Notes: generated from the letters alone by a model not told the origin. Numbered from the whole stretch's first letter, positions 580 to 52,530 are shown. The stretch is 62,970 nucleotides of DNA, filler included, from Asterionella formosa (GCA_002256025.1; 6 parts of 6 records of this genome joined end to end with filler, not necessarily neighbours in it), one strand, 5' to 3'. Numbers and translations are program-made.

Positions 580-3156
580 TAGAATATTGTTTTACTTACA
601 TTGTCGGCAGCTCCAATGGCGACGACATGCCTGTGAATAGTTCATTACATAGAACATTTACCTTTCCAAATATTCCATCCCATCTTATTAATTGTATGTT
701 CGTCTTCATTAACATTAGTTCAAAATTTTCTCACCGGAAACAGTTTCTCTATATAATATTGACGACATGTACATTGATGGAATGCTGTTAACCCTAACTC
801 AAATCATCCTAGATTTTGTCACCAGCGTAGTAATAGGTACAGTTTCACAGTACTAGCCACGTCATGTTACAACCGGGTATTGAAACAAGGGAAAGATGGG
901 AATGTGGAAATTTTATTCATAGATGTTGGTGCCTAGTAATCTTACTTAGTTTACGCTCATACTACTTTCTACATCTTTTCTAAGTGACTCCAGCCATTCA
1001 GACCATCTAAGTTCTTGTTCAGTTTCTGGGTTTTTGGTTGGAGGCACTGTTGTGGTCGTGGTCATAAGTTTTTGTCGTTCTTAGTGCAACATGATGGACT
1101 AATTTATGAAAATTTTGATTGAAGGTTCAGATAAGGAATGTTTTCTATGTAATTGAACGCTATTAATTACTATTTATAAGATAAAATCGTTTTATTTTGT
1201 GAAACGTTTGAATGGCTGCCAACTACTATCGCCAAGTTCCTCATCCTCTTCTTCAAAGTCAAGGAGGTTGGTAGAATTTACGATCTTGGATGTATCCGAA
1301 GGTATGGGATCATTCCTTACAAAATTTTATGTTCTTGATTGTAATTATCCCAGTCATGCGTGGTCAACTCTTGAAAACGAAAATAGTCTTGCCTACCTTC
1401 AATGTCGGGCTTACCCTCACTGTTTGATACTCGTTCCTTTTCGATTACGTTCTGTTGTTCAATATTAACAAGAAACTTTCTATTGTACTTCAGTGTTTCA
1501 TCATTCCAAAAAAATTCAACCCATTGACTCGGCATGAACTGTTTCCATTCAGGTTATTGCGTCCCTTTGCAGATCCGCCAATCAAAACAATTTCTTCATA
1601 GGTAGAGGCGTTAAGGAAGTGTTCAGGAATATCAGTATCTTCATCCAGATACTGACAATTTTTCAGGGTGCTGTTAACTAGAAATTAACCGCGACCACTC
1701 AGGAAAGTATATGCCTCTGTGCTGGGATGAATGGAATCACCAACATGGGTGCCATCAAGAAGACACTTTCCTTGCTTGCTGAGCCTGTGCTTGAAGGATC
1801 TTACTGGACCCAGTAATTAATGATCGTGATTCTTGATTCCTGTTCGGAAGAAGCTGATAGGAGCTAATAAGAGGAGGAAAGCCCAGTAGTACTTGGAGGA
1901 ATGATCACAAATGTCCAGGTAAACAAACTGGTACAGAGAAGTAACCCAAAAAATAAAATCGGATTTATTAAACTCTGTAAAGTTGGTTTCGGTTACACCA
2001 ACTAACAAAGAGAAGAGAATAAGCAAACAAATAAAATCAAAAAACACACAATAAGGAATCCAAATAAACTTACTCAAAACTTAACGAATGAAATGGTTCA
2101 ATCTCAATCAGAAGTAATGAATACATTTAATGCACATTCCTCCAAACCTATGGTCAAAGTACTCCTTTCTTTCCTTAGCACTTCTTACCAATAGGAAATC
2201 GGTTCCTCTATGAGAAAATTCTTCAACAACATTCCAGATGGAATCCGCCAATTCAGAATCTTCCTTAACGGCAAGAGCGATTTCGGGATGACGTTTCAAC
2301 AAGAACCAAAAGGCACAATCTTGCATACCAATGACTTGTTGGACTTGATATTCCAATACTACTTGGCACACATGTATCAGCAGGATGTTTGTAATACTGT
2401 AAGGACAATGAAAGTAAAGATGGTTGGTAACGATATCAAAAACAAGGTGATTCGAGGAGATTTAAATGTGTACATGAACTTACCTGGGTGTGACAAAATT
2501 TTCTAGTATGAAATATTTCATCAACTACTTTGGTTGCATGAGAGGAAGTTATCGATGCAACTACATCCCTTTGTCTTGTATAAATAGTAGTGGCAAGGCT
2601 GGAATCTTTGTATCCACGATAGAAGAGTTATTCAGGGAAATTTTGCGTTCCAGTTGGGCAATATTATTATGAAGTTGTTGAACATAAAACAGCAACGGAT
2701 AATGATGCTTCTGATCAATCACTGTCACATGATTAAGGCGGAACTGTGATATATATTTGAGATCATCGTCATTATCGAGATGTAACTCCATAACATTTGT
2801 CTTTGGATTATCAGTGACTGTTGAATTGTCATTCCTTCCTTGAATGGGTGGATAAAAAGGCGGCACCTTCTTGTTACCACCAGGAGAGGACAGTTCTGAC
2901 AAAATATCATCATTGTCAGAATCTGAATCTTGATGATGATCTCGCTGCTTTGTTGAAGCAGTTGTATTTGTTACAAACTCTTCATACTCATAAGACAATT
3001 TCGTTGCAGGAGTAACCAAATGCCTGCTATGTATGACATGAACAGGAAGGCTTTTTTCCGAGTCTTTTCATCCTGCTGGTTACTGTTGCGGTACTTCTTC
3101 TGAGACAAGTTATCAACTCTAGAATTATCGCTTCTTTTCATTCCTTTACCGGACAT
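580..3156 (-). pseudogene. Degenerate, probably spliced ORF of unknown family (decayed gene or TE)
   Basis: Chain of minus-strand ORF pieces (2971-3156, 2561-3019, 2108-2371, 1317-1535) that read through scattered stops and frameshifts. Candidate intron GTAAGT (~2073) to CAG (~1929). No family recognised. Confidence 0.35.
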
Positions 3157-3706
3157 GACGATAACAATGTACAGGAGTCAAGGTAAACGGGCCGCCGATG
3201 CTTTAAAATCAAAGAACGAAACAATAATAAAAGATAAAAGTCTGATATTATTTTTGGCGCGCCAAGATTAAAAAGGGAGTTGGTCTCTTAGATCATGCAG
3301 AAATATTAATTTATCATTCACTACCTATGTTACAATCTGAGTACTTCAGCATTATATCATAATGATGCACTTCAAGTGTTTTCAATCATGTTCAAATACC
3401 TACCGGTAGAATTGATCCATACCGTAGTCAAACTTGAACATTAGAACAGTACCGACAGGAACATTGACAAAATGTATGGTACCAGGGTAGTTCCCGCTTC
3501 AATAACGGTGATGTACGAGGTCCTGTTACTGTACTCTACTGAGAATCATGTAAGTTCCAGTATTCCTCCATCATGTAAGTACCAGTTAAAAGAAATCGGT
3601 CTAAATAATAAAATAATTCATAGTAATGTCTCATAATAAAATCGTACGTGCATTGTAAAATCAAATAGGATTGGTGCTCATCATACCCTCAATCGTCAGT
3701 AATACA

Positions 3707-5023
3707 ATGGCACCAGAAGGAACGGCGAAGAGTGTTACGACATCGACACTGATGGATGCCGAAGCACCTAATATGGACAATGATAAGGAAGCATCGGCCG
3801 ATGCCCCCATTAATAGCTCCACGTCAGAATTGTCGTCTCATCCCAATCGTCCCCCAACATTGATGAAACTAGCTACTCAGTCTCAGTCAACCTGAATGGC
3901 CCATGTTTGTTAAATTCTTCTGCACTCTGACTGCAATGCTAGCTCTTTCTAGACAAGTTCAAGGTTTTAAAACCTTCTGTTCTAATCCCACCTTATTGTG
4001 AGCTTATTTGATCTATCTTGTAATCGTTCACATGACCAATTATTTAGGTTCTCTTCCCGAATTTGTATAAAGATATTCATTGTGTTGTTAGACATTCAAT
4101 TCTCAACGGACAAGTCAACTCCAATCACTTAGTAGAACAATCATGAATATTCAATGCTATCTTTATTGCATATATACCTTTCCTTCATTCAAATATTGAT
4201 TACTAAGAACATTCTCCATTCGAAATTTTACCTCGGTTTGCTGATATGGAATGAAAGGCCATGTTCAATTCCACAACGTTTCCTTCGCATATCCCACACG
4301 TCCTAATACACCCGTGTTGAGAGACTTTACATTGTCCATTCCCGCCAACACCTCGGGAGCATTGGTGGGGGCTTCAGGGGCTGGCAAATCCACTGTCGTA
4401 TCATTGCTTCAACGATTTTATGATGCTTCAGAGGGATCCATTACCATTGATGGAATCGCATTAGAGACATGGATCTCAAGTGGATGCGTAAACACATTGG
4501 GTACGTTCGGCAAGAACCTCAACTCTTTGGACTGACTATTCGAGAAAATGTGTGTTATGGAGTTGATGAAGAGGTAAGTGAAGAAGAAATGATGGAAGCA
4601 CGTAGAAAGGCCAATGCACATGAATTTATCATGTCATGGCCTCTGGGATATGAAACATTGGTTGGAGAACATGGGGTCAAGCTTATTAGTGGACAAAAGC
4701 AACGGATTGCTATTGCCAGATCCATCTTGGTCAATCCTCGCATTCTGTTGTTAGATGAAGCCACATCGGCGTTGGATGCTGAATCTGAACATTTGGTCCA
4801 AGAAGCCATTGACAATGCTGCTGTCGGCCGGACTGTTTTAATTGTCGCACATCGACTCTCTACCATTCGTCGTGCCAATCAAATCGTTGTAGTAGATGAT
4901 CACAAAATGGAAGATGTGGGGACACATGATGAGCTGCTTGAACGCTGTGTCAAGTACCAAGATTTAATCAAACGCCAAAGTGTGGTGGGTCCAGTATCCA
5001 CAAGTATTGTATTGGCACAATGA
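3707..5023 (+). pseudogene. ABCB-type (TAP/MDL1-like) half-transporter pseudogene
   Basis: N-terminus at 3707-3907 ends in a frameshifted 'PEWPM'. The NBD (4251-5023) has Walker A GASGAGKS, Q-loop, Walker B LLLDEATSALD and H-loop IVAHRLST. It has a frameshift near 4460, a signature degraded to KLISGQKQR, and no transmembrane domain. Confidence 0.85.
3908..4211. mobile_element. Solo LTR related to the LTR at 307-575
   Basis: Starts TGTTAAATTC and ends AAGAACA, with internal blocks shared with 307-575. The 5-bp flanks differ (ATGTT vs TTCTC), so there is no TSD. Confidence 0.65.
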
Positions 5024-5257
5024 TAAACAATTGTGAGAGAGGGGGCACAAACCATCAATACTCTTACATCTGACTTTTTGGTTGTTCTTTGTTGTTTATA
5101 AGATCAATGAAGGATTTGTCAAATGGTCAACAACAGACAATCGTATAAAACCTGGATACAGTTATGTAGTCTTTTTTTATTGGCATACAAGTGCTAATTC
5201 TGTTCCTGTCTCAAGGCTTATACTGAATGCCTACTCCACAACTATTTCTTCTTCCTT

Positions 5258-5416
5258 AGAGTATGGCTTAGTGTTTAAGCACATTGCCTTTGATTTGAGG
5301 TTGTGTAGATTGATTCCCACAATTGTTTTGAAGCAATTGTTGGGTTCAACTAACACACTCCTCACCATCCCGCATGGTTTTTTCTGGTGAGCAAGAAAAA
5401 GTGGGTCGTCCCTCTA
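5258..5416 (+). mobile_element. tRNA-derived SINE-like element, 3'-truncated copy
   Basis: TATGGCTTAGTGTTTAAGCACATTGCCTTTGATTTGAGGTTGTG...TTGATTCCC...GAAGCAATTGTTGGGTTCAAC aligns by eye with the heads of the copies at 10147-10505 and 51591-51929. Confidence 0.75.
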
Positions 5417-6913
5417 TTGGAATAAAAAGAGGGAGAGATTGATAAATAGATTGGAAGCAATGGATGATGAAATTGATGTAGCTTGTTCAGGACACAGCTT
5501 TTGTGTTTAAATTACTGGCAATCAAAATGATAGAGATAACACAGGGATGGAAGCATACTATTGCTGGAAGGGAGGTCTTGACAGTGCTGGCATCCTTGAC
5601 TTGTTCTGAGGTGTCATTGACTAGAATTGGAGTTGTGATAGGCTTAGGCAATATACAAATGAGCAACACTTGATGAAATGATGAATCGAATGATAGATTA
5701 GGAGTTGAGACAAGAGGTGACACTTGGATTGCCAATGCAGTAGAGAGATCAGAGGAAAGTGAAAATCCTATCATGGCCTTTGGTGCCAAATGGCAGAGAG
5801 TGTGGCTGGGCGGCAGCAATAGAAAAAATTTTCTTGGAATTTCCGGAGGGAGTCCTTTGACAAATGTGCTGGCAGAGGTGTTCAAAGTAGACTGATTTTG
5901 CTGTGGAGGTGCCAGCAGGTCAAACAGAGAAAATCGAGCATAAATAAGAGTGGAGGAGTGGTAAGCAAAGGGAGCGGCAGTGTCCAAAGAGGACATGGTG
6001 ACTGAGGAGGGTGTCAGCAGCAGCGATACAGACTCCTGACATCGGCTAAGTAGGTACTAGGACAAATAGAGGACATTGTGGATTTTAACCCGGAAAGTTC
6101 AAAGTTGCAAGGTTGAAACTATTATTGTATTCAATCTTTTTTAAATACATTTATACTATAATTGTATTAGTACCACTGACCATCATGAAACAATAATCAA
6201 CAACAACACAAGCAATGCCAATGACATTTCTGATGGCGATATCCTTGGCTTGAGATCTATTTCAACAGTCAAAGCTGCAAGTTGCTAGCTTGTTGTGTCG
6301 CATATTTCAAGCTGAGTGCTACAGGCTCAGGAAGTGCTGGCCTTGATGTTTTCGGCTTGCCAGAAGCATTCATAGAATCATTTCATCTGCTGCTTGGTAA
6401 TGATGCAGAAATATTTCATGCATGGTATAATTCTGGTCCAATAATCATATAAGTGATGTGATTGGCTTGCTTATATCAATATCAATCACGATCCAAGTCG
6501 TAGAACCTACAAAAATTAATAACATTGTAGGATTAGGTACAAACATGTTCATACTCTAGGAATTACTATCAATGCCATCACAAAACTTGGGCGTGCCAGT
6601 GCATCAAAAATAGAAATTCTATTCTTGGCTGATCATAGGAACAGAAACTGTTTGGACCTACAACTATGTATCTTTAAATGTTGCTATTGATACTTTAGAC
6701 CATGGAGGAAATGGTGATGAAGTTGGTTTGCTCATAATGTTTGGCAATCAAAACAGGGCCAATGTCTTGTAGTCTCCTCTAAGTAATATCAATTGTGGCT
6801 GTGTACATAGTGGGGTACAAGATACCAGGTTTTATGGTAATCCTGGGAGGTACAGACACAGTCTCATCAATGCATTATAGATTATTTACATTTATTAAAA
6901 CTTTTAAAAATGA

Positions 6914-8299
6914 TCAGTTTCTATTACGTTCACTTAAATTTCCACTGCCACAGCCACCACCATCTCCATATCGCACTCGTTTCTTGGGCCTGAGATCAAA
7001 CTCAGTAGTTTCATCTTCATCACACTCCTCTTCCTCCTCATCTTCAATATTGCTATCATCACTACTCTCAGCGCCACCCTTTCTCACCTTGTCCCGTGGA
7101 TGCCAGATAAAACCAATCCTATCAAGAGCCTCAATCCTCTCGCGTGAGATATGACATGGCTTACCCCGCTTGTACTCGCGATATTGCCTTCGTTGATGAT
7201 GCACCCATGTTCCCAATCGTGGATTGGTCGAATAATGCGTTGGCACCATGGAATGTCCATTCTTAACCTTGAACTGCTTTAACTCTCGGAGTCGTTCCCC
7301 CCACACAGCTTCTTGGGTGTCCCAACAAAATCCCAAGCCACTGAGTTCCACGTAGCGAGAGTCCGTCATATGCGAGGGCTTGCCTCGCTTGAGAAAATTG
7401 AAATGACGTCGTTGTTCCTTGACCCACAATCCCAGTTTGGGATAGTTTGGATGATTGACAGGAACAAGACAGTCACCGTTCTCTTCTTTGAAGGCCCTCA
7501 AGTCAGCCATGTGCCTTTCCCACGCAGCTTCTTGAGCATTCCATGCAAAGTCCACTTGTTCGAGTAAAGCAATGCGTTCTGCTGTAATGCTGGAGTTCCT
7601 CCCATAGAGGCGAAGTTTGTATTGCTTGCGTTGTTCAGCGACCCACACAGCCAAGCGCGGATTAAAGACGTATCCACGGGGAACAATGCAGTTCCCGTAT
7701 TCATGTTTGTACTTCGTCAATTCATTGTAGGATTCCATCCACTTGGCATTTCGAGCACTTGGCTTACTTTTGCGAGCCTTATATCCCGGTCGTTGCTTTG
7801 TCTTGCTGCCAGCCTTGTTCGACACAGCATTGCTGCTGTCGAAAGGATCCAACATGGAGTCTTCTTCCTTGATGGCTAGTACTCCGAGCTCTGTAGGGGA
7901 GATGGCCGGTAGCTTCTTGTTCTCTTGCAAGAATGAAGTAGTCGAAACAAGGGACCGATTCGCGAAAAGTGCTGAAGCCATTCTCACCGTGTCGGAAGGA
8001 ACTATGTGATTGCTTGGGATCACATGCTGCTGGCGTTGTTGCTGCTGCTGCTGCATCTGCTGAAACAACGCCTGACTGCTGGGCTGCAGCATGATTCGCT
8101 GCCGCTGCAAGAGCATCATTTGTGTTTCCAAGAGCGACGCCGGATATGCAGCAGAAGCGCAGCACGCAATTCCGTGGTGTTGTTGCTGAATCATTTGCAT
8201 TTGAGGAATGAATACCCCATTGTGATACCCTCCTGCGACGAGGGCTCGTTGCTGAGCCAGGAGCTGCTGTTCGTACAGGGAGGGGAAGCTAATGGTCAT
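6914..8299 (-). CDS. Helicase-associated (HA) domain protein with three HA repeats and a Q-rich N-terminus
   Basis: Three copies of W....EL..(F/Y)K..NG.C.VP..Y..NP.LG.WV..QR......RI..L..(I/L)GF.W in an intact 461-aa ORF. Acidic/basic tail with PKKRVR (NLS-like). Confidence 0.9.
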   Translation of the reverse strand: MTISFPSLYEQQLLAQQRALVAGGYHNGVFIPQMQMIQQQHHGIACCASAAYPASLLETQMMLLQRQRIMLQPSSQALFQQMQQQQQQRQQHVIPSNHIVPSDTVRMASALFANRSLVSTTSFLQENKKLPAISPTELGVLAIKEEDSMLDPFDSSNAVSNKAGSKTKQRPGYKARKSKPSARNAKWMESYNELTKYKHEYGNCIVPRGYVFNPRLAVWVAEQRKQYKLRLYGRNSSITAERIALLEQVDFAWNAQEAAWERHMADLRAFKEENGDCLVPVNHPNYPKLGLWVKEQRRHFNFLKRGKPSHMTDSRYVELSGLGFCWDTQEAVWGERLRELKQFKVKNGHSMVPTHYSTNPRLGTWVHHQRRQYREYKRGKPCHISRERIEALDRIGFIWHPRDKVRKGGAESSDDSNIEDEEEEECDEDETTEFDLRPKKRVRYGDGGGCGSGNLSERNRN

Positions 8300-10146
8300 C
8301 TTTGCTGTAAGCTTACTGTCAGTCGCACTCCTTGTTGCTTTTTCGTAAAAATGAAAAAATGAGAATCAGAAAAAACTGTATGTTAATATACTGCATTCTC
8401 CTGTATACCGTCAGTCGTGGAGGTTTGTTAAACCATCCTTAGATGTTCCGTCTTTGATAGTAAAACCGGAATACTTTGTTGCTTGTCCCAATATATATAT
8501 ATATACATGAGGGTGATCAATTTTCGGATTTGGGATTAGTATGACAAATGAGATCATGAGGAGACTTCATAGAACATTCAAGTTAGAAAAGCCACGTGAA
8601 GTTTTTTCTCAAAGAGCTATACATATGATCCAAGGCTTCTCAATCTGCCCTCGCTTTCATCATATTTGTGAAATGACATGCATTTCTACGGAAGAAAACT
8701 CCATACCTGCTCGACGACAATTTCGCGTTTCGAACAATGTCTGACCCTTTTTGTCAAAGTGCATTTCCATCTTTCGAAGCAGACATGGCTCCGGAGCTGG
8801 TACCATTCCAACGTGGTATATATAGTGGGCAACATTTCGGTGAAATGCCTTCATATCGGAAAACGATGGTATCTATTTTGTCGGAGTTATCTATTTTCCC
8901 TACTGTCAGAAAGAGACAGAACCTGCTTATAACGCTACTTCTGAGACAAAAGGAATAATCGAAAGATTGACCAATTAATGGTATTTTGGTCATTTTACTT
9001 ATAAATCTATGGAACGTGGTTGACGCGCACAACGACGACAGAAACCATCAAAGGTCGACCAATTATGATATCGAGTACCTTGGAACGTGGTATCCTATAT
9101 CCTGTAAACACACACAACGACGACAAGGACCATTGAAGATGATAATCCCGCACAGGTGACAAATTAATTACTTCATTCATACCATAGATTCTTTGGTGTC
9201 ATTCTGCTGGGAGCGGGTCATCGGTAATTTAGCTACATAGATGTATAAAATGATTTACTGGTAAATGATGTATCTAGAGAAAAATCGAAAAGGACAATGA
9301 TTTACTAGCATGTTGAAAATGATGACCAAAATCTATGGAACTGAGTTTACTTTATCGCTCATATCAATAGCTTTTCGATGTATTAATCATGATTTTTATT
9401 GTTCATTTTTATGGCTGGGTGCAAATTTTGATGACATCTGGTAGGTTCATGCAGACTTACCATAATTCCCATGCTCATGTCGTCCTCTCTCATGCTCTTG
9501 TCTCCTCGTTGTACATCTGGTACTACACACTTAAAAATATTAAATGTGCAGGAAAGAAAACATATTACTTTTTTATTGCAAGAAGCTACCAGCATGCATC
9601 ATATTATTTTGATCAGCACTGTCATCAAAATGACATCCTGTCAAGATGGAGAAATACTCTGACTATGTGGTGTCACAAATGGGAGAAGCTGTATGCAAAA
9701 TAGATGCCTAGGAGCTCATGTTCACATAATTGATACAGCGCGTTAAAGCTTTCAAGCGTACAATGGTGGAGATTGGTGAGGAGAAAGAGCGAGCTGCAGA
9801 TGGTGATGAAGGCTGTGGTTGTCTGAGATGGAAGAGAGATATGTACAATTGGGTTTCAGAAAACAAGATTTTGCTCAAATCATTGAGCTGTATGATGTAA
9901 GCGACAATCGAACAAAGAGGGCTAGGAGCAATCACAACCTTGAAGTGGATTTGTTTCAACTTTTTGATGACATCAAAATTCAAGAATAAATGGATTCTAA
10001 AGGGAGTTTCTTTGAATAAAGTTCAATAATCTTGATTGAACAAGGATAGATTTAATATATATGAACTAGTAGTTGAGCATTTTAAGACTTGAAACTGAAA
10101 TATTTAACAAAGAAAAGATGTAATCATTAAATGTTATCCAAATATA

Positions 10147-10505
10147 AAAAGTTAGAATGTTTTATAGCCCATTCGTACTCCCCTATTTCTAGGCGAGTCT
10201 GTCATTGTTCTACCTGCTGACAAGACCTGTGCTTCCCTAGTTTTGTTAGCGTAGGTGAGTCCCCAACCACCTTTCGCGAAAGGTGATTGTCTTAGCCGCA
10301 GCGTTAAAGGGGGAAAATCCGACCGCCTAGGAAGGCGGCACAGGCTGCTTGTAGGGGGGCAACCAACTATTTCTTGAACACCAGGCAAGACCGTGCGGAG
10401 TGTGGGAGTCAAACCCAACAATTGCTTCTCATAAAAATTGGGGAATCAAACCTCACAACCTCAGATCAAAGGCAACGTGCTAAACCACTATGCCATTTCC
10501 CTATT
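10147..10505 (-). mobile_element. Full-length tRNA-derived SINE-like element (359 bp) with 13-bp TSD
   Basis: A box TGGCATAGTGG (10485-10495) and B box GGTTTGATTCC (10442-10452) are 32 nt apart. The direct repeat TTATCCAAATATA occurs at 10134-10146 and 10506-10518. Two further copies are in the window. Confidence 0.85.
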
Positions 10506-10539
10506 TTATCCAAATATACTATAATTAAAGTGAATAACC

Positions 10540-11160
10540 TGTGAATCCAATGCTGGCCCAGGTAATTGTGATCGAAGACACAGTTACCTGGGCCCATATT
10601 CGTCCACCCATTGGGAAACATTGTGCCTCTCAATCTTTTCATATTCTAGGTTTTGAACCATAAAATATCCCATACAGCCTGCACATAGCCTTTACATGGC
10701 TTGTTAGTGACTCCCACATCCAGTACTTGAAGCTGGGATGTGTTGCCAGGGGTTATATCGTCGACCTCAGTGCTGCCACAAGAATATTTGATGGCATATA
10801 CACATTTGCAAACTTTTTGGACCGAAAAGTCGTCTATGTGCAGATAAGTTGGCTCTGGGTCCAGGGCTTCCAAAGAAACCTGTTCAATCCAATTCAAAAG
10901 ACAGTTTGGTCTAACCAAGCCCTGGCCTGGCAAGAGTATTTCACTGAAACCGGAAATTCGGTTGCTGGATTGATGGCTAACTGACTGCTTATCTGTCCAT
11001 CACTGGTTCCCTTGAACACAATGAATGGAGGATGGGGCTTTTTAATAGTCTAAGAGTTCTACCTAAGAGCACAGTGCAACGACCTGAAGTGCCTGAAGTC
11101 TTCGTTCCAATGGTTCTGGCTCCACGTTTCTCCAATGTAAATGGTCCATAATTGTCTCAT
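10540..11160 (-). mobile_element. pogo-like (DDE_1) transposase remnant
   Basis: Frameshifted read-through gives PPFIVFKG...QARAWLDQ..NWIEQV...LHIDDFSVQ...PGNTSQLQVLDVGVTNKPCK, matching the DDE_1 catalytic motifs. Confidence 0.8.
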
Positions 11161-12254
11161 CAATTTTTAAGGTAAAAAATTGACACACTCACGCACCTTC
11201 TGCACGACACAGCACTACTCTGCACTCAATTACACCTTAACAGGCGGTTGACAAGGTGTTTCCATAACCGCCATCCCCAATCGGCAGCGCCAGAAGTCAA
11301 TACTTATGTTATGTTGATATCAGGAGGGTTAGAATTTTCCAAACCCAGGCTGTTTACGCCAGGAAAATCCACCTAGCTTTAAGGCACTATAAATGAAGTT
11401 ATTATACATAATACACTCAATGCACCATTTGACTACTGGTAGCATTTTGAGTTAGCAAGTAGTAACAATGTCACGCTATTTCGAGGTACCAGGTAGTGTT
11501 GGATATGATCTCACATCATGACAATAAATAGCAATTCAGATCGAAAAATTTTGGTTTGCTAAGATTTAAATGGCACCCAAAAGTCCAAAAAGTCAAAATT
11601 TACTGTTTTGATTTGCGAGGTAATTATGTCGTCATGACGAACAATTTGTGGTAAACAAGCGAAAAACAATTTGGGGTTAGCTGACAGATTATGTAACCAA
11701 TCAATTCTACTTGAGTCGAGCTTTGTTTGACAAAGAATTGGCATGTCAAAGAAAAATAAATCACATGGAAAGATAAATTCAATTTGGATCCAATGAGCAT
11801 TCAATCGAAAACAAAAATTTCGGTCAGGTTTGTGTCTACTCGTTCGAAAAGTGCATACATAATGTTTGTTGTACAGGATTATCTATCATTATATGGCTGA
11901 TGAAGACTAGTGATGATTTATTTGGAGCAAAAATCGATTTGGGTCTACTGAGAGTTGAACCAAATAAAATAATTAGGTCTGCGTCGACTAGGTTGAAAAC
12001 AGCTTTGTTGCATCGGATAATCAAGGGTCATATCATGAAAGCTAAACCTGCATAAACTATTCAATTACTTCCTGCAAGGCCTACCAAACTGATAGTTTAC
12101 AAATACTTTGATGAACGGAACTCTTAATGTCAATATAGTGTACAGTTCCGCAATAATCTAACTCAAATTTTACTCCAAAGTACCGTACCGGTATATAGGT
12201 TACTTACTACCTGGTTCCCTGGTTCGTCCCTGGTTCCCTGGTTCCTGGTACCAC

Positions 12255-14528
12255 TTAAAAACTGTAAGCCACCGTTATTTTACTCTATCTTTCGACTAAA
12301 AATAATTATGTAATTCAACGATCAAAACTTGACGCAAGTACAAAGCTTATGTTAGACAATGCTCTCTGCTATACTTTCAAGAAATCAGTTTTGATTTAGT
12401 GTTATCTAGCCATGAAGAAATAATTTCCAAAGTCACTAAGATTATTGCATAGCAGTGGCTTGCAGTGCATATTTTTCTATGTGTGCATGTAAATATTTTC
12501 CCCCCAAACCGTGTTTATTTTTACTCCGTTAATACTACAAAAATTATTTTCTTATTACTTTACGTTTTACACTTTTGCAGGGCAGTATCATCGTTGGAGA
12601 ATTCTTCTGATGTATTACATTAATCTCGAGCTTGCTTCTTTGCATCCAATTACTTGCTTGCGGAGTCTCAAACTTCATCACGGAATGGTGGATCGGCAGT
12701 AGCAGTTGTAGAAGGAGAGGGAATAGTAACAGGAGGAGGTGCAAAAACAACAACCACAGCAATAGGAGGTGTATGGAGAGGGAATGGCGGCTGCTGGTCA
12801 CCACAGTGATTGGTGTCGTCGAATCTTGTAATCAGAGCTTGCCTTGTTTGTGGAACCAGTAAATCACCTGATCGTTTGTACCAACGCACCATTAATTTCA
12901 ATTCTAGCACAGACATCTGTTCTTTTGTTTTGTTCTGTTCCTTCAATCTAAGTACTTTTCCGCGAAGTGTATTGAATTCTTGTTGCCTTTTTGTTTCTTT
13001 TGTACTAATGACAATGTCTGAAATTCGCTTCCGTTCCAATGTAGCAGCAAGAATATTTGGCCCAAGGGTAAATGTTTGTGCAGAAGCCAGTAGTCCTGCT
13101 GTTATCCTCTTCTTGTGTCCCTCAATGTGTAAATCCGCTGTTTCCTTTCTCTTTCTAGCTTGGGCCTCCTGGTTGATTCCATTTCGCAGATTCTCGCATT
13201 TGCAAAACTCGTTAATTCTTCCAACAATTGTTCCAGCAAAGCCAGTTTGGAGGTTTAACTCATCAGGAGGGAGTCTCTGTGGGCGCATTGATGTTCTGTT
13301 GTGGTTGGGTTAGTTGAATCTTAGGGTGAAGCAAGACATTATAGTTCAGGGGGCCACCATCCTCATTCATAAATTGCTTTCTTGTTTGTGGCAATATTTG
13401 CAAAGGAATTGTCCCATGCCATATGCACCAGTCCAACAATGTTGACCTTGTTAATTGTAAGCTCTTGCCTGTGATCTGCTTTTAAGGTGAGCGATTTGCG
13501 TTTTGCTTTTGTTATCATGCTCATTTTGAAACAACCGTTTTGCTCACTACTGTCTCCAACCTGCCAGTAGCTTGTACCATAAGGAACACCAATACAGCCT
13601 GTCCAATTGTGTACTGGGTTGTTTATGTATTCAAGGAACAAATGTCAAATCAAGACCCATGTCCATCAAGTATTAGGAATGGTGGGGGCCCGTTGTTTCA
13701 AGGAAAGATGCCAGAGTCATCCCTGTGCTTTAGCATGCCAACCAGAAGCTCTGCAGTGATTGAGCCATTTTCTGACACACAGCAGTATGTAGGCAATTTT
13801 TCCCTTCCACATCACAGACTGGTCCTTGTGGATATTGTTTTCTCTTTCTGCTGTTGCCATGTATGTTTTCATCTTCTCCTTCCCAAGCAGCAAAAAGATG
13901 TAGGCCAAGCTTCTAGCTCCCTAATCACATTGTTAAGACAAATCTGAACACTGACCAACTCTTCAGCAGAAAATTTCTTTCAAGGCAAGGCATTGCCTTG
14001 TCAAGGCACTTTCGAGGTCATGATGTTGGTATTGTGATGGGTGATGGGTGATTGTTGTGTTTGCATTTAATTTTTGTACTCATAATTTGGCCGCACCAGG
14101 AATTCCTATTTGACTTTTTCCATTAGTGAATTTATCTCATTATTATGGCACACGAGCGAAAGCGCAATGACGTCGTAGCTATATTAAATAAATTTTAGAG
14201 GATACTAAATTAGTTTTCTAGCAGAGGAATATTTATATACCTGTATACCTATATAAAAGGTGATGCTTGCTCAATCGAGTAAACGTGAAAATATCCAATT
14301 TTCGCAATTTCATGTGGACAGCAACCTTTGGGCGATAATACCTAATTAACAATGTACACAATGCAACAATACAAGTACGGAAGTATTTACTCGCTGTATT
14401 AATCTGAACAACTCGTTCGTGACAATAAATAGCGTATCTTGTAAACAAAGTTCAAACCGTGCGTTTACTCCGTTTAGCGGTGAAAAAACAGTTCAAAAGT
14501 CGCCGTAGCGGTGGATTACAGTTTTTAA
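12255..14528 (-). mobile_element. TIR element 'A' carrying a decayed pogo-like/DDE_1 transposase
   Basis: TIRs TTAAAAACTGTAAGCCACCGTTA (12255) and TAGCGGTGGATTACAGTTTTTAA (ending 14528). Internal pieces read SENGSITAELL...PFLILDGHGS..FLEYIN...CIGVPYGTSYWQVGDSSEQNGCFK...AWDNSF, plus a C-terminal ORF at 12668-13288. Confidence 0.8.
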
Positions 14529-14911
14529 GGTTCCTGCATTTGAACCCCTAGGCAAAAATTAAAATATTGCTTAGGGTTGCCGAAATTCCCTGGAACTAAG
14601 AACTTTTATGTGCTAATTTGAATATCAATGATTCCGTTTGAAAAATTCAAATGAGTGGAAATTTGCGCGTACGTATATAGATTCCATTTCAAATGCATAA
14701 AATATGTAAAGATAGATTCTTCATCGCTGAATGTTTTATATTGCTACTCTACCGATAGTATACCTACTCGTATCATAAATATGTTTCACATGCACGACCC
14801 GGCGGCTGCAAAATATATTTGAATGTGCAAACTATCGGTACTAAGGTACTGGTTAGCGTGCACTACCATTTACTATGACGAATGATGATCAGTTACCTGG
14901 AACCGGTAGGT

Positions 14912-15017
14912 CTACCCGGTACTCTGTATTCCTACTCCGTACGGATTCCTGTTTACGGGTAAACCTACCCGGTACTCGATATTCCCACTCCGTACGGATA
15001 CCGGTATACGGGTAGGA
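14912..15017. repeat. Two tandem 53-bp units, each self-complementary
   Basis: CTACCCGGTACTC...TCCGTACGGA...TACGGGTA starts at 14912 and again at 14965. Confidence 0.85.
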
Positions 15018-15378
15018 TCGGCCAACACCCAAGAAAATGCTTCATGTGTATCCAGTGTGGCCGGCGTGGGATGGCACGACCTCGCAAACCGTGCCAATCG
15101 AACGGATGTAAGGATAACCAATCAGAATATGATTTTTACAGCGGGCAATTACATTGGAACTTTTTGTACACGAGATTTTACGACTACAAATTTTAGCACA
15201 AGACTACCATTCCGATGATGACGTTTCGGCGATTAGTGATTCTGATTCCGACGTTTGGGTGACCGTTGAAAAGGCCGATATTGTCGAATTTTTGGACGAC
15301 GATAGCTCAACGTTGGCAGGGTTTGAAGAAGAGTTAAGTACATAGGTAATCTTCATATAGCCCCAGAAGTTAACTTTC

Positions 15379-15501
15379 GGCGAGAAACTGCAGAAAGGAA
15401 CTTCGGTTTTTTTACTAGGCCAAATAAACGAGTTAGCCCGGTAAAATCCACTATTTTCAGCATAGTTAAAAAACCGAAGTTCCTTTCTGCAGTTTCTCGC
15501 C
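15379..15501. repeat. Perfect 34-bp inverted repeat inside element B
   Basis: GGCGAGAAACTGCAGAAAGGAACTTCGGTTTTTT (15379-15412) and its reverse complement (15468-15501). Also present at ~27713-27834. Confidence 0.9.
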
Positions 15502-16351
15502 AGATCCTATATCCTGACGATATATAGCGTTGACCTATACCCCTACTTTGATAAATTACTGTATTTAAGCATGTGGAAAGGGTGTGTATTGGTGAAAGCT
15601 CCGTTTAGCGATATACATTTACGTTTTACTCGTAAGAAGTCTATGGTTGACTACTCTGACTTAATATTATTTTTTAAACCCTACCTCGAGCTAGGGGTTC
15701 AAATGCAGGAACCTTAAGCCGGAGAAAATCGTTGTATAAGTCAAAATGGCCCCGGAGAAATTTTAAGAATTGACACAATTGTCTTCTCGTCGTCCAGAGG
15801 GTGGTATCAGTTACAGTACCTGGTACCAGGTACCAGGTAGTCTGCATTTTGCATTCTGCAAATGCATTGGTTGTAACAAAGGCGTGTACCAGGTACACCT
15901 GGTACATAGGGGACAAAAGTGACCGAAGTTGTATGTATCGGAGTATAATTACCTATAGTGTTACGGTACATAGATATGTATTCGGAGTAAAGCATATACA
16001 TACTATGTACATGTTGTTTGAAATCGATTGTTGCATTGCCGGTATACCGGGATGTATGAGGACTAAGGCTTTGAAGGTCCTCTAATCGAGAAAGTTAGCT
16101 CGGCTTTTCTTTTATTGTAAATCGTCTTTCCCCGGACCCTCCCTGCTGGCTCTAGGGCTTCACAGGCTTGACCGTGTGCGTGCTAAAATGCCTTCACCAC
16201 CATCCTCACACTGGTGGTATACCGGTAGATGTTCTCGTCAACCATCAGATCAGATCGTTTACATGCAAGTCACTCGGGAAGAAGTCCATCTATTAATCTA
16301 CGTTTTGTTCGTCACTTGCAGGGCGACTAATTGGCACATCATATTAACCTC

Positions 16352-17925
16352 ATGGCGCCGGGTCAATCGTCTGAAGGAAGCGGAACAATCGAGAAAAAGA
16401 GAATGCAGCAGATTGCAACAGAAGATGACCTCTGCAAGGCCCTTGGGATTGATATGCGAGATCATCTCACTCCCGGCGTGGAGATGGACACTCGAGAGGT
16501 TGAATACGTAGTAGTTCCAAATCCTACTGCTGATGCAGTTGATCTCAGCGATTTGAGAGGAATCAAGGCCCCACCCGATGCTGCTGAGAGGGAAGGTTAG
16601 TTTTGTTTTGTTGTTTGAGTGCCTTGCGTCGCATTCATCCGATTCAGATCTACATAACTGACAAATCTTCTCTTATTTTTAAATCCTTGACATCAGATTT
16701 CCTAGGAGAAGAGTCTAGTGATCCTGATTTGGAGGCTCTTGCTGAAATTGTTCCAAAACTGAAAACGAAAAGAAACACAACTGGGCATGCAATGACAATT
16801 GATATTCCAATGGAGCCAGATATGGAGAAAAGAAAGGTGGCTTCTCATCTCGCTTCTCCAACGATGGCATGTGTTGCCGAGGAAACGCCCATTGAAGTTG
16901 AGGCGGATTTACAAATAATGATGAACGACGAGGAGAACGAGAAGAAGGAGCAACTGGCAAACGCCAAGAACAAAGCAGCAGCAAATATGAATGAATCAAT
17001 GGTTGCCATGGCTGGTGATTGCACCGGTCGAGTTGATACTAACGACGCGCCCGAAGAATTTTTGCTCTTGGCTGATAGCATGAAAGTACAAGAAAGCGCA
17101 GAGGAGTCGGACGATGGAAAAGTTGAGCCAACGATTGCCAAGGAGGCTAAGGCTAGGGTCCTTCCAGCTATCGACAACGATGGAGGTGGTAACGACGAGC
17201 AAAATCTTGGAGGCTTTGACGATTCTGAATCCAATTCAGAGTGTGAGTTGAACCCCGATGAATTCGTTGCATCTTCTGCACGCATTCCCAATCTGCGGGA
17301 AGATCACCGTCATCACCTAATCTCGTCGGAAGCGTCAATGTCCACAGCTACTCAAACACAAACTCATGAAGCCCGTATGCCGCTGTTATTACCGAACTTC
17401 AAACCAGCAACTGGATGCACAAATGCCTCTGATTTTATTGTGCGGTGCTTTGTGGCTCGACTGAGAGCAGGTATTACTGTTGTGAAGCATGGCCGGTCTC
17501 GATGGTGCAAGTCTCGCCTCCGCGTCCTTCACATTCATCCAGACGGGCGCTCGTTGAGTTGGAAGCCTGCCGCAGGCGAGCCAGCGTCGAGCAAGCGACC
17601 ACCCAAACTCGATTTGAGTACTTGCACCGAAGTTCGACATGCGTGGTCACCAGACCCGTTGAACCCAATGTTTACGGGAACTGCTATTTTGCGACAAAAG
17701 TGCGAGGCAGCCAATGCTCACAAGTCCTTTGCTTTGATATTTCCGAAGCGAAGTGTTGACATTACTGCTGTTACCGCTGATCAATGTAAGGTGCTGATGG
17801 AAGGTTTTTCAGCCTTGTGTTTCCGTCTTCAAGTGGCTAATCTGGCTGGTCGCAGTGGCAATAAGGGGAGGGTTTCGATTGGAGAAGTTGCATCCCCTAC
17901 TGTGGGGCATGCTCGCGCTAATTAG
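16352..17925 (+). CDS. Acidic low-complexity protein with C-terminal PH-like domain; exons 16352-16595 and 16697-17925
   Basis: GT..AG intron 16596-16696 joins two ORFs in frame (G|AT = Asp). The C-terminus LRAGITVVKHGR...SLSW...SFALIF...VDITA...LMEGFSAL resembles PLC/Mcp5-type PH folds. The true start is uncertain. Confidence 0.75.
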
Positions 17926-19639: not shown

Positions 19640-20990
19640 ATGCCAGATGCTGTGTGCCAGAAGCTGCACTGTCCAGATACCCATCACTGTCTAATGTCTA
19701 ATAGCATATTGTGGAGCATACAGCATGATGTGAACACTTTCTCGATATGCTCAGGTCGACTCAGGTTGTTCCAGTTTTCAAGGAATAGCCATTGACATTT
19801 GAATGTACCAAAAAAGTACATTCAATGTCTTTTCGAACAGACTCCATCATCCTACCTCAAGCCCTTTCTTTTCCATGTTCATTGCCATACTTTATTGGAC
19901 AAATCAACACCGGCCATCTTATGTATCCTCCATCACAGAATATAAAATAGTAGGCTTTGCATGGAATAGATGAATCATCAGAAAGTGCATGCCACTCTTG
20001 CCTGCAAAGAAAAGAATAAATATCATTTAGATTGGAAAGAGCAGCACTGAATTTGACTATGTGTTTGTCGTTTCTTGTTCCTGGATGCAGGTAGCTGATG
20101 GACAAAATTTTCCTTCTGTGATCAGAAACCACCTCAAAAGCAATTGATGGATACCCCTTGGAACCACTTTATATATTTTCTTTTTGTAGGAGGGACATTG
20201 ATTCCTTCCCATGTGTACATAATCAACTGAACCTATACACCCTGGAAGTCCAAGAGAAGTGTAATCTTGTAGAATTTGTTTCAGGTGCTCATCCTGTTCC
20301 GATTAATCATTCAGTATGAATATATAATTGTTCTTCTTTTCTGCAAATTTCGCAGTCCAATGAAGAAAATTGTCGGTACACCTTCTGGAGATGTCAGTTT
20401 GCATATTCACAGACTTTCGTCCCTTATAAATAGGAACTGAGTCATAAAAACCAAATATCTTATTATGCGATAAAATCTTCGTGATCGGGATAAGTCTGCA
20501 TCAGCCATGACATTTTCGTTGAACATTTCTGTCCTTCTTGAATCAGCAACAAGTCTCCGACCATTGCTAGCATGAAAGTACATAAAGGTACTTCTAGCTC
20601 CATAATAGGTATACTACTTCTTACATACAATCATTTCATACAGTATTATTGTTGCACAAAGTTGAAAGTTATTACGTACTATGTGAGTTAATTGTGGACC
20701 TAACTGAATTGCTGCCATCAGCTCGAAGCTTCTACCGAAGAATATGACGTCGAAAGCACACGATATTGCTCGCAAGGGTGATGACAACCATGAACAAGTT
20801 GCTTCCAGCATGTAAAAGGGTGTGAATATAATGGTCACAGCATGTCTTCATCGTATCCAGCCATTTTCGCTAGTACAGATTCTAGTGATGCAATGAAATG
20901 TGTTTGTTATCAATAGGGGTTCTCCAATCAACTTCTTCTATTTCTTGGACTCCATGCCAACAGTGAAACAAGGAAATCATAAAATCCTCC
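19640..20990 (-). mobile_element. PIF/Harbinger transposase remnant
   Basis: Read-through gives GLPGCIGSVD.VH...GYPSIAFEVVSDH.RKIL...PGTRNDKHI...CDGGY.RWP...MESVRKDIECT...CCMLHNML, with multiple stops and frameshifts. Confidence 0.85.
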
Positions 20991-22357: not shown

Positions 22358-22424
22358 AAGGTCCGATTATCGAGATATTTATCTTAATCTTTGCGAAAGT
22401 AAATAACGTGTTTTACCGGACCTT
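22358..22424. repeat. ~70-bp mini-element with AAGGTC...GACCTT inverted ends
   Basis: Shares ATCGAGATATTT, AATCTTT and AACGTGT.TTACC.GACCTT with 42993-43063. Confidence 0.6.
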
Positions 22425-23723: not shown

Positions 23724-24275
23724 AATTTTGGGGGCCACCGGGCGGGTAGACCCTGTAGGCCTAGTATTGTTAGCATAAACCCTAAACCTATGGTTTATAA
23801 TATTTTGCGCCTGGATTGGCATGTTAAAATCACATCCACCATGTTGTTATTATTCTGTTGCTTTACTCATGCGCCGTTTCAAATAACCTTCTTTTCGCCA
23901 TGAGTAACGCTACTAGTAAACACAGGAAGCGGCACAGGACGACACAATTCGGTTTATATATGAACTATTTTGTGTGGGCACGCAGATCCACGCCTAAATG
24001 ACCAATGGTTTCACACTCTTGAGCTTGATAGTGGGCAAGCTGGAGTTGAAACCATACAGGAATTTCTCAAATAAGGTCATGTAGTACTACTAGCATACAA
24101 CAACGATTTCACACACATCGCTGCGCAATGGACTTCGATTTCATGTTCGTCATGAATGAATACAACGACAACAACAACGAGATCGCGGATGAGTGTGTAT
24201 ACAAAATTTATTCATATAAATGTTATTTATGTTGAACATTTTACTTAAGCTAAAATTATGATGTACTGGTACTAG
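23724..24275 (+). repeat. Dispersed ~550-600-bp repeat, copy 1
   Basis: Aligns by eye over its full length with the reverse complement of 43200-43803. Confidence 0.85.
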
Positions 24276-27225: not shown

Positions 27226-27500
27226 GGGAGGTTTGAGATTCTAGCCTACAGACCTTGGATTAATGTAAATCTTGGATCGGAGTTTTGCTAAAGGGAAGAC
27301 ACGACCGAGGGTGGCTGCTGAAGGCAATACACGGCCGAGGTGGTCTCATCCCAGCCGAGTACACATTTTTTACGAGAAGGCATGTAGCCACCGAGAAGGG
27401 TATTGCTGAGGCAATTCCCGCTCCAGCTATCGTCTTGCAATTCGGGTACTGCTAAGTAATTTGTAGGCTCTAAGTAATTTCTTAAGTAACATATATTTAA

Positions 27501-27834
27501 GGTTCCTGCATTTGAACCCCTAGCTCGAGGTAGGGTTAAAAAAATAATATTAAGTCAGAGTAGTCAACCATAGACTTCTTACGAGTAAAACGTAAATGTA
27601 TATCGCTAAACGGAGCTTTCACCAATACACCCCCTTTCCACATGCTTAAATACAGTCATTTATCAAAGTAGGGGTATAGGTCAACGCTATATATCGTCAG
27701 GATATAGGATCTGGCGAGAAACTGCAGAAAGGAACTTCGGTTTTTTAACTATGCTGAAAATAGTGGATTTTACCGGGCTAACTCGTTTATTTGGCCTAGT
27801 AAAAAAACCGAAGTTCCTTTCTGCAGTTTCTCGC
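27501..27834. mobile_element. Element B end, inverted relative to 14529-15713 and cut by the contig end
   Basis: TTAA then GGTTCCTGCATTTGAACCCCTAGCTCGAGG. Near-identical reverse complement of ~15381-15713. Confidence 0.9.
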
Positions 27835-27934
27835 NNNNNNNNNNNNNNNNNNNNNNNNNNNNNNNNNNNNNNNNNNNNTTAATTAATTAANNNNNNNNNN
27901 NNNNNNNNNNNNNNNNNNNNNNNNNNNNNNNNNN

Positions 27935-28061
27935 ACTGATTCAAATATTTCAAATGGAATCACGTCATTCAAAAATAGCTAATTAAATTCTTAATTCCAG
28001 GGAATTTTCGCAACCCTAAGCAATATTTTAATTTTTGCCTAGGGGTTCAAATGCAGCAACC
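27935..28061. mobile_element. Diverged opposite end of element B
   Basis: Reverse complement of ~14529-14650, ending CTAGGGGTTCAAATGCAGCAACC. No TTAA follows. Confidence 0.8.
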
Positions 28062-28219
28062 GGCATTGGCTAAACAAATCTAAAACTGGTACCCCGGAGC
28101 ATATCGATACCGAGAAGAGCAATCATTGGTGGAATACAGCTTACATACATACATAGGATTAGGTAATCATTTTGCGTGTGTCAGAAAATTGATTTGCTTC
28201 TGCATATCAGCCTACTAGT

Positions 28220-31420: not shown

Positions 31421-31867
31421 CACATGCTACAAAGAGACCTGCTCCAGGGTCCAGCCTTGGACCTCCNNNNNNNNNNNNNNNNNNNNNNNNNNNNNNNNNN
31501 NNNNNNNNNNTTAATTAATTAANNNNNNNNNNNNNNNNNNNNNNNNNNNNNNNNNNNNNNNNNNNNTATGGAAGCCAAAGTACAAGATACAGACGGTGAG
31601 TGGATCAGAGTACAGTACAGGGCAGGAAAGAAAAGAAAAACAGAGGAGCCATGTTGCCAGTGAAGGAATAGGGATGGATCAGTCAGTAAGTATAAATATG
31701 CTGTATATATAATTGACATGAGTTCTGCTCATGCTCATGCTAATTATTTATTATTTATCTTGTTTACATCAATAGAGCCTCCTTTGTCGACTGTTTTCTG
31801 GACACTGAACTTCTTCTGGACATTGTTGTCTTATAGACACAACAGAATACAGTCCAAACTTATGGTT

Positions 31868-42992: not shown

Positions 42993-43063
42993 GGAAGGTC
43001 AGGAAATCGAGATATTTTGCTGAATCTTTTCTTAAGTTTAAAACGTGTCTTACCAGACCTTCC
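42993..43063. repeat. ~70-bp mini-element with GGAAGGTC...GACCTTCC ends
   Basis: 8-bp perfect inverted termini. Homologous to 22358-22424. Confidence 0.6.
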
Positions 43064-43292: not shown

Positions 43293-43341
<49 letters not shown>

Positions 43342-49472: not shown

Positions 49473-51590
49473 TTGATAAAATTGTAGAATGGAATGGAAT
49501 CGGAACTGTCAACGATGAATAAATAATCTGGGAAGGTGCAGCGGGGAAATTCAGAAGGAAGAGCGGACTCTACCGGTAGACTACTCGTTGATTAATACAG
49601 CGCCAGAAAGCAATCTATGTATAGACCCGAACCGAATGGAGTGACGAGGAATGAACAAATGGAATGATGATGGAATTACTGAAGAGAAAGGAGCCGCCGT
49701 CCCGTCGTGTGAATGAATTATTATTCCTTAGGCCCTTAGTATATATGTTACGGCTAATACCTTCTGTGCATAATCGAACAACGATGCTTCCTAGAATACC
49801 GGTATTTCATTACCGGGAATAGCAATACAAACTGTATCATATCTCATCCCGGTAGCATCATAGACGAAGCAAAATCATGCTGTTTCTAGCTTTTACCATG
49901 CATGTCCTCCACTACTGATATTGCAGCCATGCATAAATGTATTGCAGCACTTCCCATGATATTCCCATGCGGCCCAGTTCCATCACATGCAGTCTACATA
50001 GGGTATGAAACCGTACTCTAGACTCTAGATTACTTGTAAACTGCAAAAACAACATGTTGCATGTCATTGGGACCAGCAGAGAGCAAATGGTGGTGGTACT
50101 GACAGTAAATTCATAATGTATGTTGTTCATCATATTGCAGCCAGTATGCACTTTCTTCTAGCCAATCAGCTAACTCTGCTGTGTGTTTTGTTAATCTGTA
50201 CAGAAGCAATGACACTGCATTTTTGTTTTGAACGATTGGTTGATTGTCTGATGTTGGTTGCACTGCTGCAACGATTACATGTCCCATCAAAGCAATCATT
50301 GTTTACTCCTGTTGTGCAATTTTTGCAATTTGGCTTTCATTTTTTTCTTGTCTTTTTCTGTAGCGAATAATGAAGCTCAGAAATATTTTGATGCAGAAGT
50401 GGTAAATTGCTCTGGTGTGTTGTTCCTTTTGTACTGGTGATGGCAAGCAATATTGGGTCAATGATTCTTCTTGTTGCTGGTGGCTCTACAGCATTTTTTG
50501 GAGTACTACACTAACAGGGACAACGGTATGACTTTCGTTCTGCTCATTTCATCATGGATAATACAATTTTTCAGAAGGTCTTTTTCTAATAAAAAATTGG
50601 TAAGTAATGTTTGAAGAAGTCAGGCTCAGAAATTTCAAAGGTCATCATGGTGTTGGTTGCTGCAATTGTTTGGTTAATTGCCATTTGGTGATGTCACATC
50701 CATCGTTCTTGCCCTTCCTTCTTGTGGAAATAAGAGAAGTTTGAGTGGTAGAGATGCAGAGCCTGAGGCTCCTTCTTGTTTACTTATGAACCCCTAAACA
50801 ATAAATCTGTAGCAGGAGGAATCATTGCTTGTGATGATGGAAAATGTTGACGGACAGATTGTCATTCCTTCGATAGTTAGCAGGTTTTTTCTGGAGAGTC
50901 AACAGCATCACACTAGGCATTCTTGGAAGATGGTATTGTCATCATTAAATCTATATCTAGGTACCTTTATTATATCTACCAACTGAACAGTTATGAATTT
51001 CATTGACCTGATTTTTCTTAATTTTTTTGTTTGCCTTGTAAATGATCACCTTGCTACCTGAACAATTCACATTTATAGTAAATTTGGACACCATGCTCAA
51101 TATCAAAGCGTGGAGGTAGAGTGTAGCAGTAGCATTTTGTTAGAACACCACTAAAAGGACCCTTTTTGCTCGTAACAATATCCATTTTGTCCACCATTGT
51201 GAAGGTATGATTGATGCTGATGAATTTTAGTGTAAAGGTGTTTTGCATATAGGCTAATGAAAAATGCTTTAAAAATTAATTTTAAAAAAAGTGTTGCCTC
51301 TATATGAAAAGGATCATGTTTTCAATACTATACACCAGCAGTGTGGCTGGTGCTTACTTTCGAAATGATGAAATTAACTGGGAACCACCTTGAATATAAA
51401 TGAAACATGGCTGACTCACATGAACTGACACGTCCAGGAACCAATACAAGTTAATGTCATTTTTGAGAAAGTGAAAATTGTATGGTTGGCTATTAATGAG
51501 GGGTGGTTTTCTCTTATTAGCGTGATGGAGTCGTAGGAAAGAAATTTATATATTTAGAAATAAAATATTTTGTTTGGTTTGGTAAAGACA

Positions 51591-51929
51591 AGGGAATGGC
51601 TTAGTGGTTTAGCACGTTGCCTTTGATCTGAGGTTGTGACGTTCTATTTCAGAAAGAATTGAAAGCAATTGTTGGGTTCAACTCCCACAATCCTTACCTT
51701 CCGCCCGCATGGCTGGTCTTAGCTGGTGTGCAAAAAATAGTGGGTAGCCCCCCCCCTACAAGCAGCTTGTGCCGCCTTCCTAGGCGATCATCTTTCGCGA
51801 AAGGTGGCTGGGGACTCACCTAGTAGGCTAACAAAATTAGGGAAGCACAGTCCAGGTCTTGTTGGCAGGTAGCACAATGAAATACTTGCCTAGAAATAGG
51901 GGAGTATGAATGGGCTATAGAACATGCTA
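51591..51929 (+). mobile_element. tRNA-derived SINE-like element, near full-length copy
   Basis: GGGAATGGCTTAGTGGTTTAGCACGTTGCCTTTGATCTGAGGTTGTG...GGGGAGTATGAATGGGCTATAGAACAT is collinear with 10147-10505, with an internal deletion of roughly 35 bp. No clean TSD. Confidence 0.85.
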
Positions 51930-52530
51930 TCCTGCTATTATAGTTTTGTTTAGTAATGTTTGCGATGCTATTGCCCTGGAATTCGAATCCTACTCACCAT
52001 AATGAGAAAAGCTCCATGCGGAATATTGTTCAGCCAAGAGTAAGTTCAGGTACATGACCATTAGTAGTACCTGGTAATCCACCAGGGGACCAAGGAAACA
52101 AGGCTATATTTCTCATTTACACGGATCATCCCCACCACATTCATATTGCAAAACAAGTCATGCATCTGTAGGCGCCTTCCTCCTGCCTGAGCGAATCTTC
52201 CATGGCTGTTGCTTTGACAAAACGAGAGGAGTGGTGCCATCTCCACATGCAACCTTTGTTATGAATGAGGAGACGAAGAAAGTGGACAGTGCTTAATGAT
52301 GAACTTTTAAAGAATTTCCAATTTGGACAATTTACAATGGAAACTTCAGGCCTCCACTTGGTATCAAAGCACGAGGATACAAGCCTCCTGGTGCCACTAG
52401 CTAGTTGTTATATGTATGACGCACACAAGTGCCATAAGAAGAGTTAGCTAGCAGACAAGATATAGTTATTACCTGCTTGCTGGTACTAGTCTCATTGCTC
52501 CTCTGTGCGTATTCATATTCCGAGGCTCCT

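Follow-up and report, generated by a model that had tools for sequence, protein, structure and literature searches.

What is the 359-nt insert that lies on the minus strand at 10505..10147, with a direct repeat on both sides, and what kind of process would have placed it there? The window, that is, the whole 62,970-nt stretch of DNA that was analysed, consists of six contigs joined by linkers of the form N44-TTAATTAATTAA-N44 (27835-27934, 29652-29751, 31467-31566, 33282-33381 and 35097-35196), four of the six joined pieces being about 1715-1717 nt each. We consider that the insert, here copy 1, is probably a member of an abundant, non-autonomous family of SINE-type retroposons in a freshwater pennate-like diatom.

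The long frames in the window include those for an HA-domain protein, a RAP/FAST protein, PAP2, a metallophosphoesterase and Rpb8. For the Rpb8 frame the search gave 850 relatives, and 4 of the best 120 carry an organism name; those named among the matches listed are Fragilaria crotonensis (84%), Phaeodactylum tricornutum (81%), Entomoneis paludosa (75%) and Conticribra weissflogii (73%). Three of these four were checked and are Bacillariophyta, which supports the diatom-like host that the preliminary description had proposed. Runs containing the locus are labelled, among those that bear a label, as algae, freshwater, riverine or lake metagenomes. For a 445-aa frame at 16588-17922, Atlas features were uninformative.

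The window also holds other repeats. A series of inverted repeats (12266-15717 versus 27497-28946, 81-99% identity, 338 nt at 99%) crosses the first linker, and the end of the first contig together with the second mirrors the interval at 12.3-15.7 kb; the cause is either a large duplication in inverted orientation or an artefact of assembly or of haplotypes. About 900 nt are directly repeated between a small contig and the last one (33524-34413 versus 40844-41737, 82-98% identical), about 500 nt recur in inverted orientation (23770-24271 versus 43202-43765, 85-97% identical), and a 67-nt repeat family (16074-16140, 22358-22424 and 42995-43061) has inverted ends, AAGGTCC...GGACCTT, that lend it a MITE-like look. 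A fragment of a DDE_Tnp_4 (PIF/Harbinger-type) transposase lies at 19860-20168 on the minus strand (E 5e-06). The block at 36001-38000 is GC-rich (GC 0.57 versus about 0.40 elsewhere, GC skew 0.32) and contains a 460-aa frame (36546-37928, minus strand) without a Pfam match.

Copies of the element and their flanking repeats

Copy 1 was delimited by its direct repeat, BLASTN, a profile search and contig depth, and its 359 nt fall inside the short-SINE range of about 80-600 nt. The perfect 13-bp duplication reported around this minus-strand element is indeed present: TATATTTGGATAA, read on the minus strand, stands at 10518..10506, on the 5' side of the element, and again at 10146..10134, on its 3' side, where the empty-site joint described below marks it as well. 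None of 500 shuffles of the flanks gave an equal of this repeat, which reaches 16 nt if one mismatch is allowed; with the 16-nt form adopted, copy 1 becomes 10147-10502 and its first letters are AGGGAAATGGC.

The two further copies claimed alongside it were both found by BLASTN, on two contigs as stated: copies 1 and 3 belong to the first joined piece, copy 2 to the sixth. Searched with a profile made from six copies, the window yields these three sites and no fourth. Copy 2 (51578-51929 by BLASTN, plus strand; 51587..51936 from BLASTN, profile and a candidate flanking repeat) is full-length and older, about 72% identical to copy 1 (72.3% over 390 columns). Copy 3 (5263-5416 by BLASTN, plus strand; 5254..5426 from BLASTN and profile) comprises the head and the beginning of the body, without the 3' part, and matches copy 1 at 75.6% over 156 columns. 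An ABC-transporter frame (4451-5023, plus strand) ends shortly before this copy, which shares part of its length with an open frame at 5037-5387.

A single metagenome scan returned five loci, and three of them, on three other metagenome contigs, hold relatives at 80-88% identity: L005 is a nearly full copy (80.6%), in L003 the match covers the first 200 nt (87%) and stops where the contig ends, in what is presumably sequencing adapter, and L001 has the first 100 nt (88%). The remaining two, L002 and L004, have only 23 nt in common with the element and were judged unrelated. When the 3' motif and a mid-head motif were searched against collections of genome contigs and of viral contigs, each search gave 0 matches.

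All three full-length copies (1, 2 and L005) are flanked by repeats, and the tabulated lengths are variable, at 13/16, 11 and 12 nt, respectively. The flanks of L005 (TGTAAATATACA / TGTACATATACA) agree over 12 nt with one mismatch, which 3 of 500 shuffles reach. For copy 2 the candidate repeat (TTTTGTTTGGT / TTTTGTTTAGT), 11 nt with one mismatch, is reached by 7 of 500 shuffles and sits 14 nt upstream of the core. Indels between the copies are not multiples of three and break the frame, Pfam matches nothing in the 97-aa frame of the element itself, and a reverse-transcriptase or endonuclease domain was found by Pfam in 0 of the 86 frames of at least 100 aa in the window.

Abundance, sharp ends and the empty site

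How common is the family, and where does it stop? Contigs of three DNA runs (X1-X3) and one RNA run (X20) were compared with 9700-10950 at a likeness of at least 80%, which gave 11716 matching records in X1, 1047 in X2, 1030 in X3 and 698 in X20. Because summed contig depths are not copy numbers, we used only the contrast between the element (10162-10497) and its flanks: 524,330-1,991,879 versus 2,435-30,085 in X1, 1,087-3,897 versus 14-122 in X2, 1,087-3,628 versus 7-61 in X3, and 803-4,024 versus 0-90 in X20. With the element far above its flanks in all four runs, and 698-11716 contigs per run, the proposal of an abundant family is borne out. Within the SINE body, the stretch 10204-10287 has the highest or near-highest summed depth in X1-X3, up to about twice that of the head in X1, and in X20 about 2.6 times that of the head bin; this module might be common to another repeat, a second SINE family or the 3' end of a LINE.

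In each of the four runs loose contig ends gather at 10497; the other clusters lie at 10147 (X1), at 10157 and 10158 (X3) and at 10158 (X2 and X20). AT-rich flanks with poor agreement (0.41-0.59) lie beyond the loose ends. The clusters together with the unlike flanks indicate that the family ends sharply where copy 1 ends.

A site without the element is also represented. One contig each in X1, X3 and X20, three of the four runs, joins 10133 to 10506, skipping 372 nt (the element and one of its repeats), with 11 letters at the joint fitting either side; the same joint was looked for in the X2 contigs and not found there. In X1 this contig has a depth of 943.9, compared with 868-1093 in the exact flank contigs, and may be an allele or a paralogue. 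Other element-less relatives carry a 40-letter replacement of 10134-10545 (X1 and X2), and an RNA contig of X20 (contig 17, 1186 nt) spans both flanks.

The landing site itself is repetitive. Many X1 contigs cover the flanks, up to 26 at one place when counted with the variant letter, and the element therefore lies inside another repeated sequence. This multi-copy sequence contains an open frame at 10649..10999 on the minus strand, for which 29 of 30 matches by Atlas features fall in the DDE_1 set. Pfam was negative on this frame, even with TAG read as X, and a search for longer proteins gave two unannotated relatives, one of which has a weak match to a Brinker-type DNA-binding domain (E 0.0049). 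The frame is possibly the remnant of a decayed DDE_1 (pogo-like) transposase.

The head, the 3' end and the route of mobilisation

Judged by its motifs, the head of the element appears to be of Pol III type, with a sharply defined 5' end, AGGGAATGGC. An A-box-like motif, TGGCATAGTGG, lies at 10495..10485 and a first B-box-like motif, GGTTTGATTCC (GGTTCGATTCC in L003), at 10452..10442, both on the minus strand and 32 nt apart, just as the preliminary description had it. In the window, 0.02 occurrences of the pattern AGTGG-N25-45-GGTTYGANNCC would be expected and one is found; 2 of 100 shuffles contain a match. In the alignment of six heads, each about 110 nt long, the A-box motif is (nearly) invariant and its region among the most conserved parts; four heads start GGGAATGGC, copy 1 starts GGGAAATGGC and the head at w5258 starts GAGTATGGC. 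A second B-box-like motif, GGTTTGACTCC (10405..10415, minus strand), emerged from the repeat search, an Rfam match of L003 and the fold; it lies 37 nt from the first, within a T-arm-like hairpin of 4 bp (TGGG/CCCA), and of the two motifs it is the one with the better T arm and the one that closes an acceptor-like stem. At the level of motifs the head thus has an internal Pol III promoter, as conserved boxes at tRNA-like spacing.

Does this head descend from a tRNA? ARAGORN found no tRNA in the window or in the metagenome loci, and Rfam none at its gathering score. With the ARAGORN threshold relaxed to 80%, five of the six heads were called, all differently (Ala, His, Leu and Gly, and for L003 one undetermined plus Lys), and we treat these calls as noise. 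A likeness to tRNA-Gln or tRNA-Val, suggested in the preliminary description, finds no backing from any tool, the relaxed calls being mutually inconsistent. Searched alone against Rfam, the L003 head matches tRNA-Sec, of the tRNA clan, over its whole length at 17.6 bits versus a gathering score of 47 (E 0.24), the copy 2 head gives 15-nt T-arm matches only, and the heads of copy 1 and L005 give no match. The L003 alignment has an acceptor-like stem, GAGGGAATG with CACTCCTTA, a D arm, a T arm, TGGG-TTCGACT-CCCA, formed on the second B-box-like motif, and a 28-nt insert that contains the first B box. Laid over the six heads, this cloverleaf, a fold taken from one row, is 81.0% paired versus 29-48% when slid, and it has no covariation in these heads, 294 of 500 shuffles reaching its score. 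Of the proposed tRNA derivation, the box-like motifs stand; the tRNA-clan match is weak and concerns one head of four, and the tRNA searches at full stringency speak against the label. Given a weak single match and no covariation, tRNA ancestry is at most plausible and the isotype is not nameable.

Downstream of the head, RNAalifold and the repeat search point to a conserved body hairpin at 10264..10289 on the minus strand, formed by the palindrome CACCTTTCG/CGAAAGGTG; in L005 the stem is kept and the inner letters are changed. A 3' domain at 10147..10215, on the same strand, is predicted to consist of a stem of AGGTAGA (10215..10209) with TCTAACT (10156..10150), an inner hairpin and a T run (10150..10147). 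Across the three full copies RNAalifold pairs AGGTAG(A/C) with (T/G/A)CTA(A/T)C(T/C) directly before the tail (columns 337-343/400-406); one of the three sequences has both letters of a single pair changed, and so small a set does not carry a claim. Copies 1 and 2 end in TTTT(T), and the third full copy, L005, has no T run and ends CTTTATTCC. The consensus at the loose ends of X2, X3 and X20, read on the element strand, is ...GATTATCATTT; two of these runs show a fourth T.

We infer from this anatomy Pol III transcription, a LINE partner and target-primed reverse transcription. The internal promoter would yield an RNA that starts at AGGGAATGGC; the reverse transcriptase and endonuclease of a non-LTR (LINE) element encoded elsewhere would recognise the 3' stem and tail; the enzyme would nick AT-rich DNA at points staggered by about 11-16 nt; and target-primed reverse transcription would then copy the RNA in place, leaving the element between duplicated target sequences. 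Copy 1 would in this way have entered the frame of another repeated sequence, in like orientation.

The element might instead be a retroposon that Pol III does not drive, its A and B boxes being relics, its full-length RNA made by Pol II or by read-through from the host, and the reverse transcriptase that mobilises it possibly belonging to no classical LINE partner. T runs of the T5-T7 kind terminate Pol III, and a T5 run, a potential terminator, lies at 10433..10437 on the minus strand in the head alignment (T7 in L001, L003 and L005), so that a full-length Pol III transcript would need read-through. In four of six heads (copy 1, L001, L003 and L005) the run comes soon after the first B box, some 65-70 nt into the element; at the same position w5258 has T4 and copy 2 (w51578) no T run. 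As far as the sequence goes, it argues against simple Pol III read-through. Diatom Pol III may read through the run, in which case the terminal T4-5 would be no terminator either, or the full-length RNA may be produced by another route. A non-Pol III origin would also suit two further observations: the X20 RNA run carries the element within longer contigs (record 19, 856 nt, and record 20, 413 nt), from which the transcribing polymerase is not readable, and no LINE was seen among the frames of the window. Against it, the 5' ends of the six copies, and the loose ends in the four runs, fall within a few bases of one another where the tRNA-like head begins, and such uniform ends fit a start defined by a promoter better than read-through; the high conservation of the A-box region likewise speaks against relic boxes. 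We favour the promoter-defined start and regard the Pol III-independent route as unlikely.

A non-autonomous DNA transposon (MITE), one from a superfamily that makes 9-11 bp duplications, for instance, would also be short, non-coding and abundant and lie in AT-rich DNA, all of which the element is and does. Terminal inverted repeats, however, are absent from all three full-length copies, the duplications differ in length (13/16, 12 and 11 nt), and the two ends are asymmetric, a promoter-like head facing a T-rich tail, which makes this reading very improbable. Duplications of fixed length together with inverted termini had been named as what would contradict a SINE, and the copies have neither. 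LTRs are recognised by TG..CA ends, a 4-6 bp duplication and copies that stand in pairs on either side of an internal region. A solo LTR, or a part of a larger element such as a TRIM or LARD, would accord with a length of about 350 nt and can hardly be right on any of the points on which we checked it: the ends are not TG...CA, the duplication measures 11-16 nt rather than 4-6, the three copies in the window are solitary, two on different strands, with no pair around an internal region, and past both ends the flanks are unlike across contigs (agreement 0.41-0.59).

Relation to known SINEs and meaning for diatoms

How does the SINE-type family compare with established ones? In the sections available of two accounts, SINEs are 80-500 bp elements with internal A and B boxes, a family-specific body and an AT-rich or simple-repeat 3' tail, flanked by duplications of 5-15 or 8-16 nt (PMC5787218, PMC8825457); the second of these, in the same partial form, gives the tails as poly(A), poly(T) or low complexity and notes that not all heads have small-RNA homology (PMC8825457). 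The diatom element resembles tRNA-type SINEs in its 359 nt, its boxes 32 nt apart, its unique body, its duplications of 11-16 nt, its high copy number and its lack of coding capacity. Unlike them, it has a head without tRNA homology recognisable to ARAGORN or Rfam, a second B-box-like motif, an internal T5-T7 run and no poly(A). Its tail is only 4-5 T, preceded by the stem AGGTAG.../...CTAWC, and is lacking in L005.

The oomycete Phytophthora infestans is reported, in the available part of the source, to carry infSINEm, in 32 copies, and other SINEs (PMC3429519). Compared by description only, infSINEm shares with the diatom element a stramenopile host, a non-autonomous nature and a proposed internal Pol III promoter, and its 32 copies contrast with the 698-11716 contigs per run of the diatom family. 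Among diatoms, the portions available of three papers report 13 copies of a "putative SINE" (1,454 bp) in P. tricornutum, presented as the first in a diatom (PMC5859163), SINEs in Cyclotella cryptica v2 (PMC7466962), and a SINE class together with LINE/Ambal in Pleurosigma pacificum (PMC12803021). These share a diatom host and the SINE label with our family; as described in those portions, and compared by description only, they are classes from automated pipelines without described anatomy, duplications or empty sites. That SINEs are rarely reported from diatoms, as the preliminary description held, accords with what is available of PMC5859163 and PMC7466962. Our search of the literature, covering main texts without supplements, found no description of the anatomy of a diatom SINE family, and a search for SINEs in Fragilaria found nothing.

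We therefore put forward, tentatively and as somewhat less than an even prospect, that this could be the first SINE family from diatoms that is defined in its anatomy, high in copy number and recently mobile, with an unusual head in which a duplicated B-box module together with a T7 run interrupts a tRNA-like fold, with a 3' end of stem plus oligo-T, and common at 80-88% identity to diatoms of freshwater and marine-labelled samples. SINEs are an established kind of element, and the family leaves their known working unchanged. If the proposal is true, pennate diatoms have an active machinery for non-LTR retrotransposition, and either their Pol III reads through T7 or the element is a two-product gene that gives an RNA of about 75 nt as well as the full-length template for retroposition; a conserved internal T run would raise the question of how Pol III terminates in diatoms. 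Diatom repeat annotations, in the parts available of PMC5859163, PMC12803021 and PMC7466962, give SINEs as small automatic classes only. A defined and abundant family would show active target-primed retroposition in a diatom lineage, would point to the partner LINE and would supply presence/absence markers for freshwater diatom populations.
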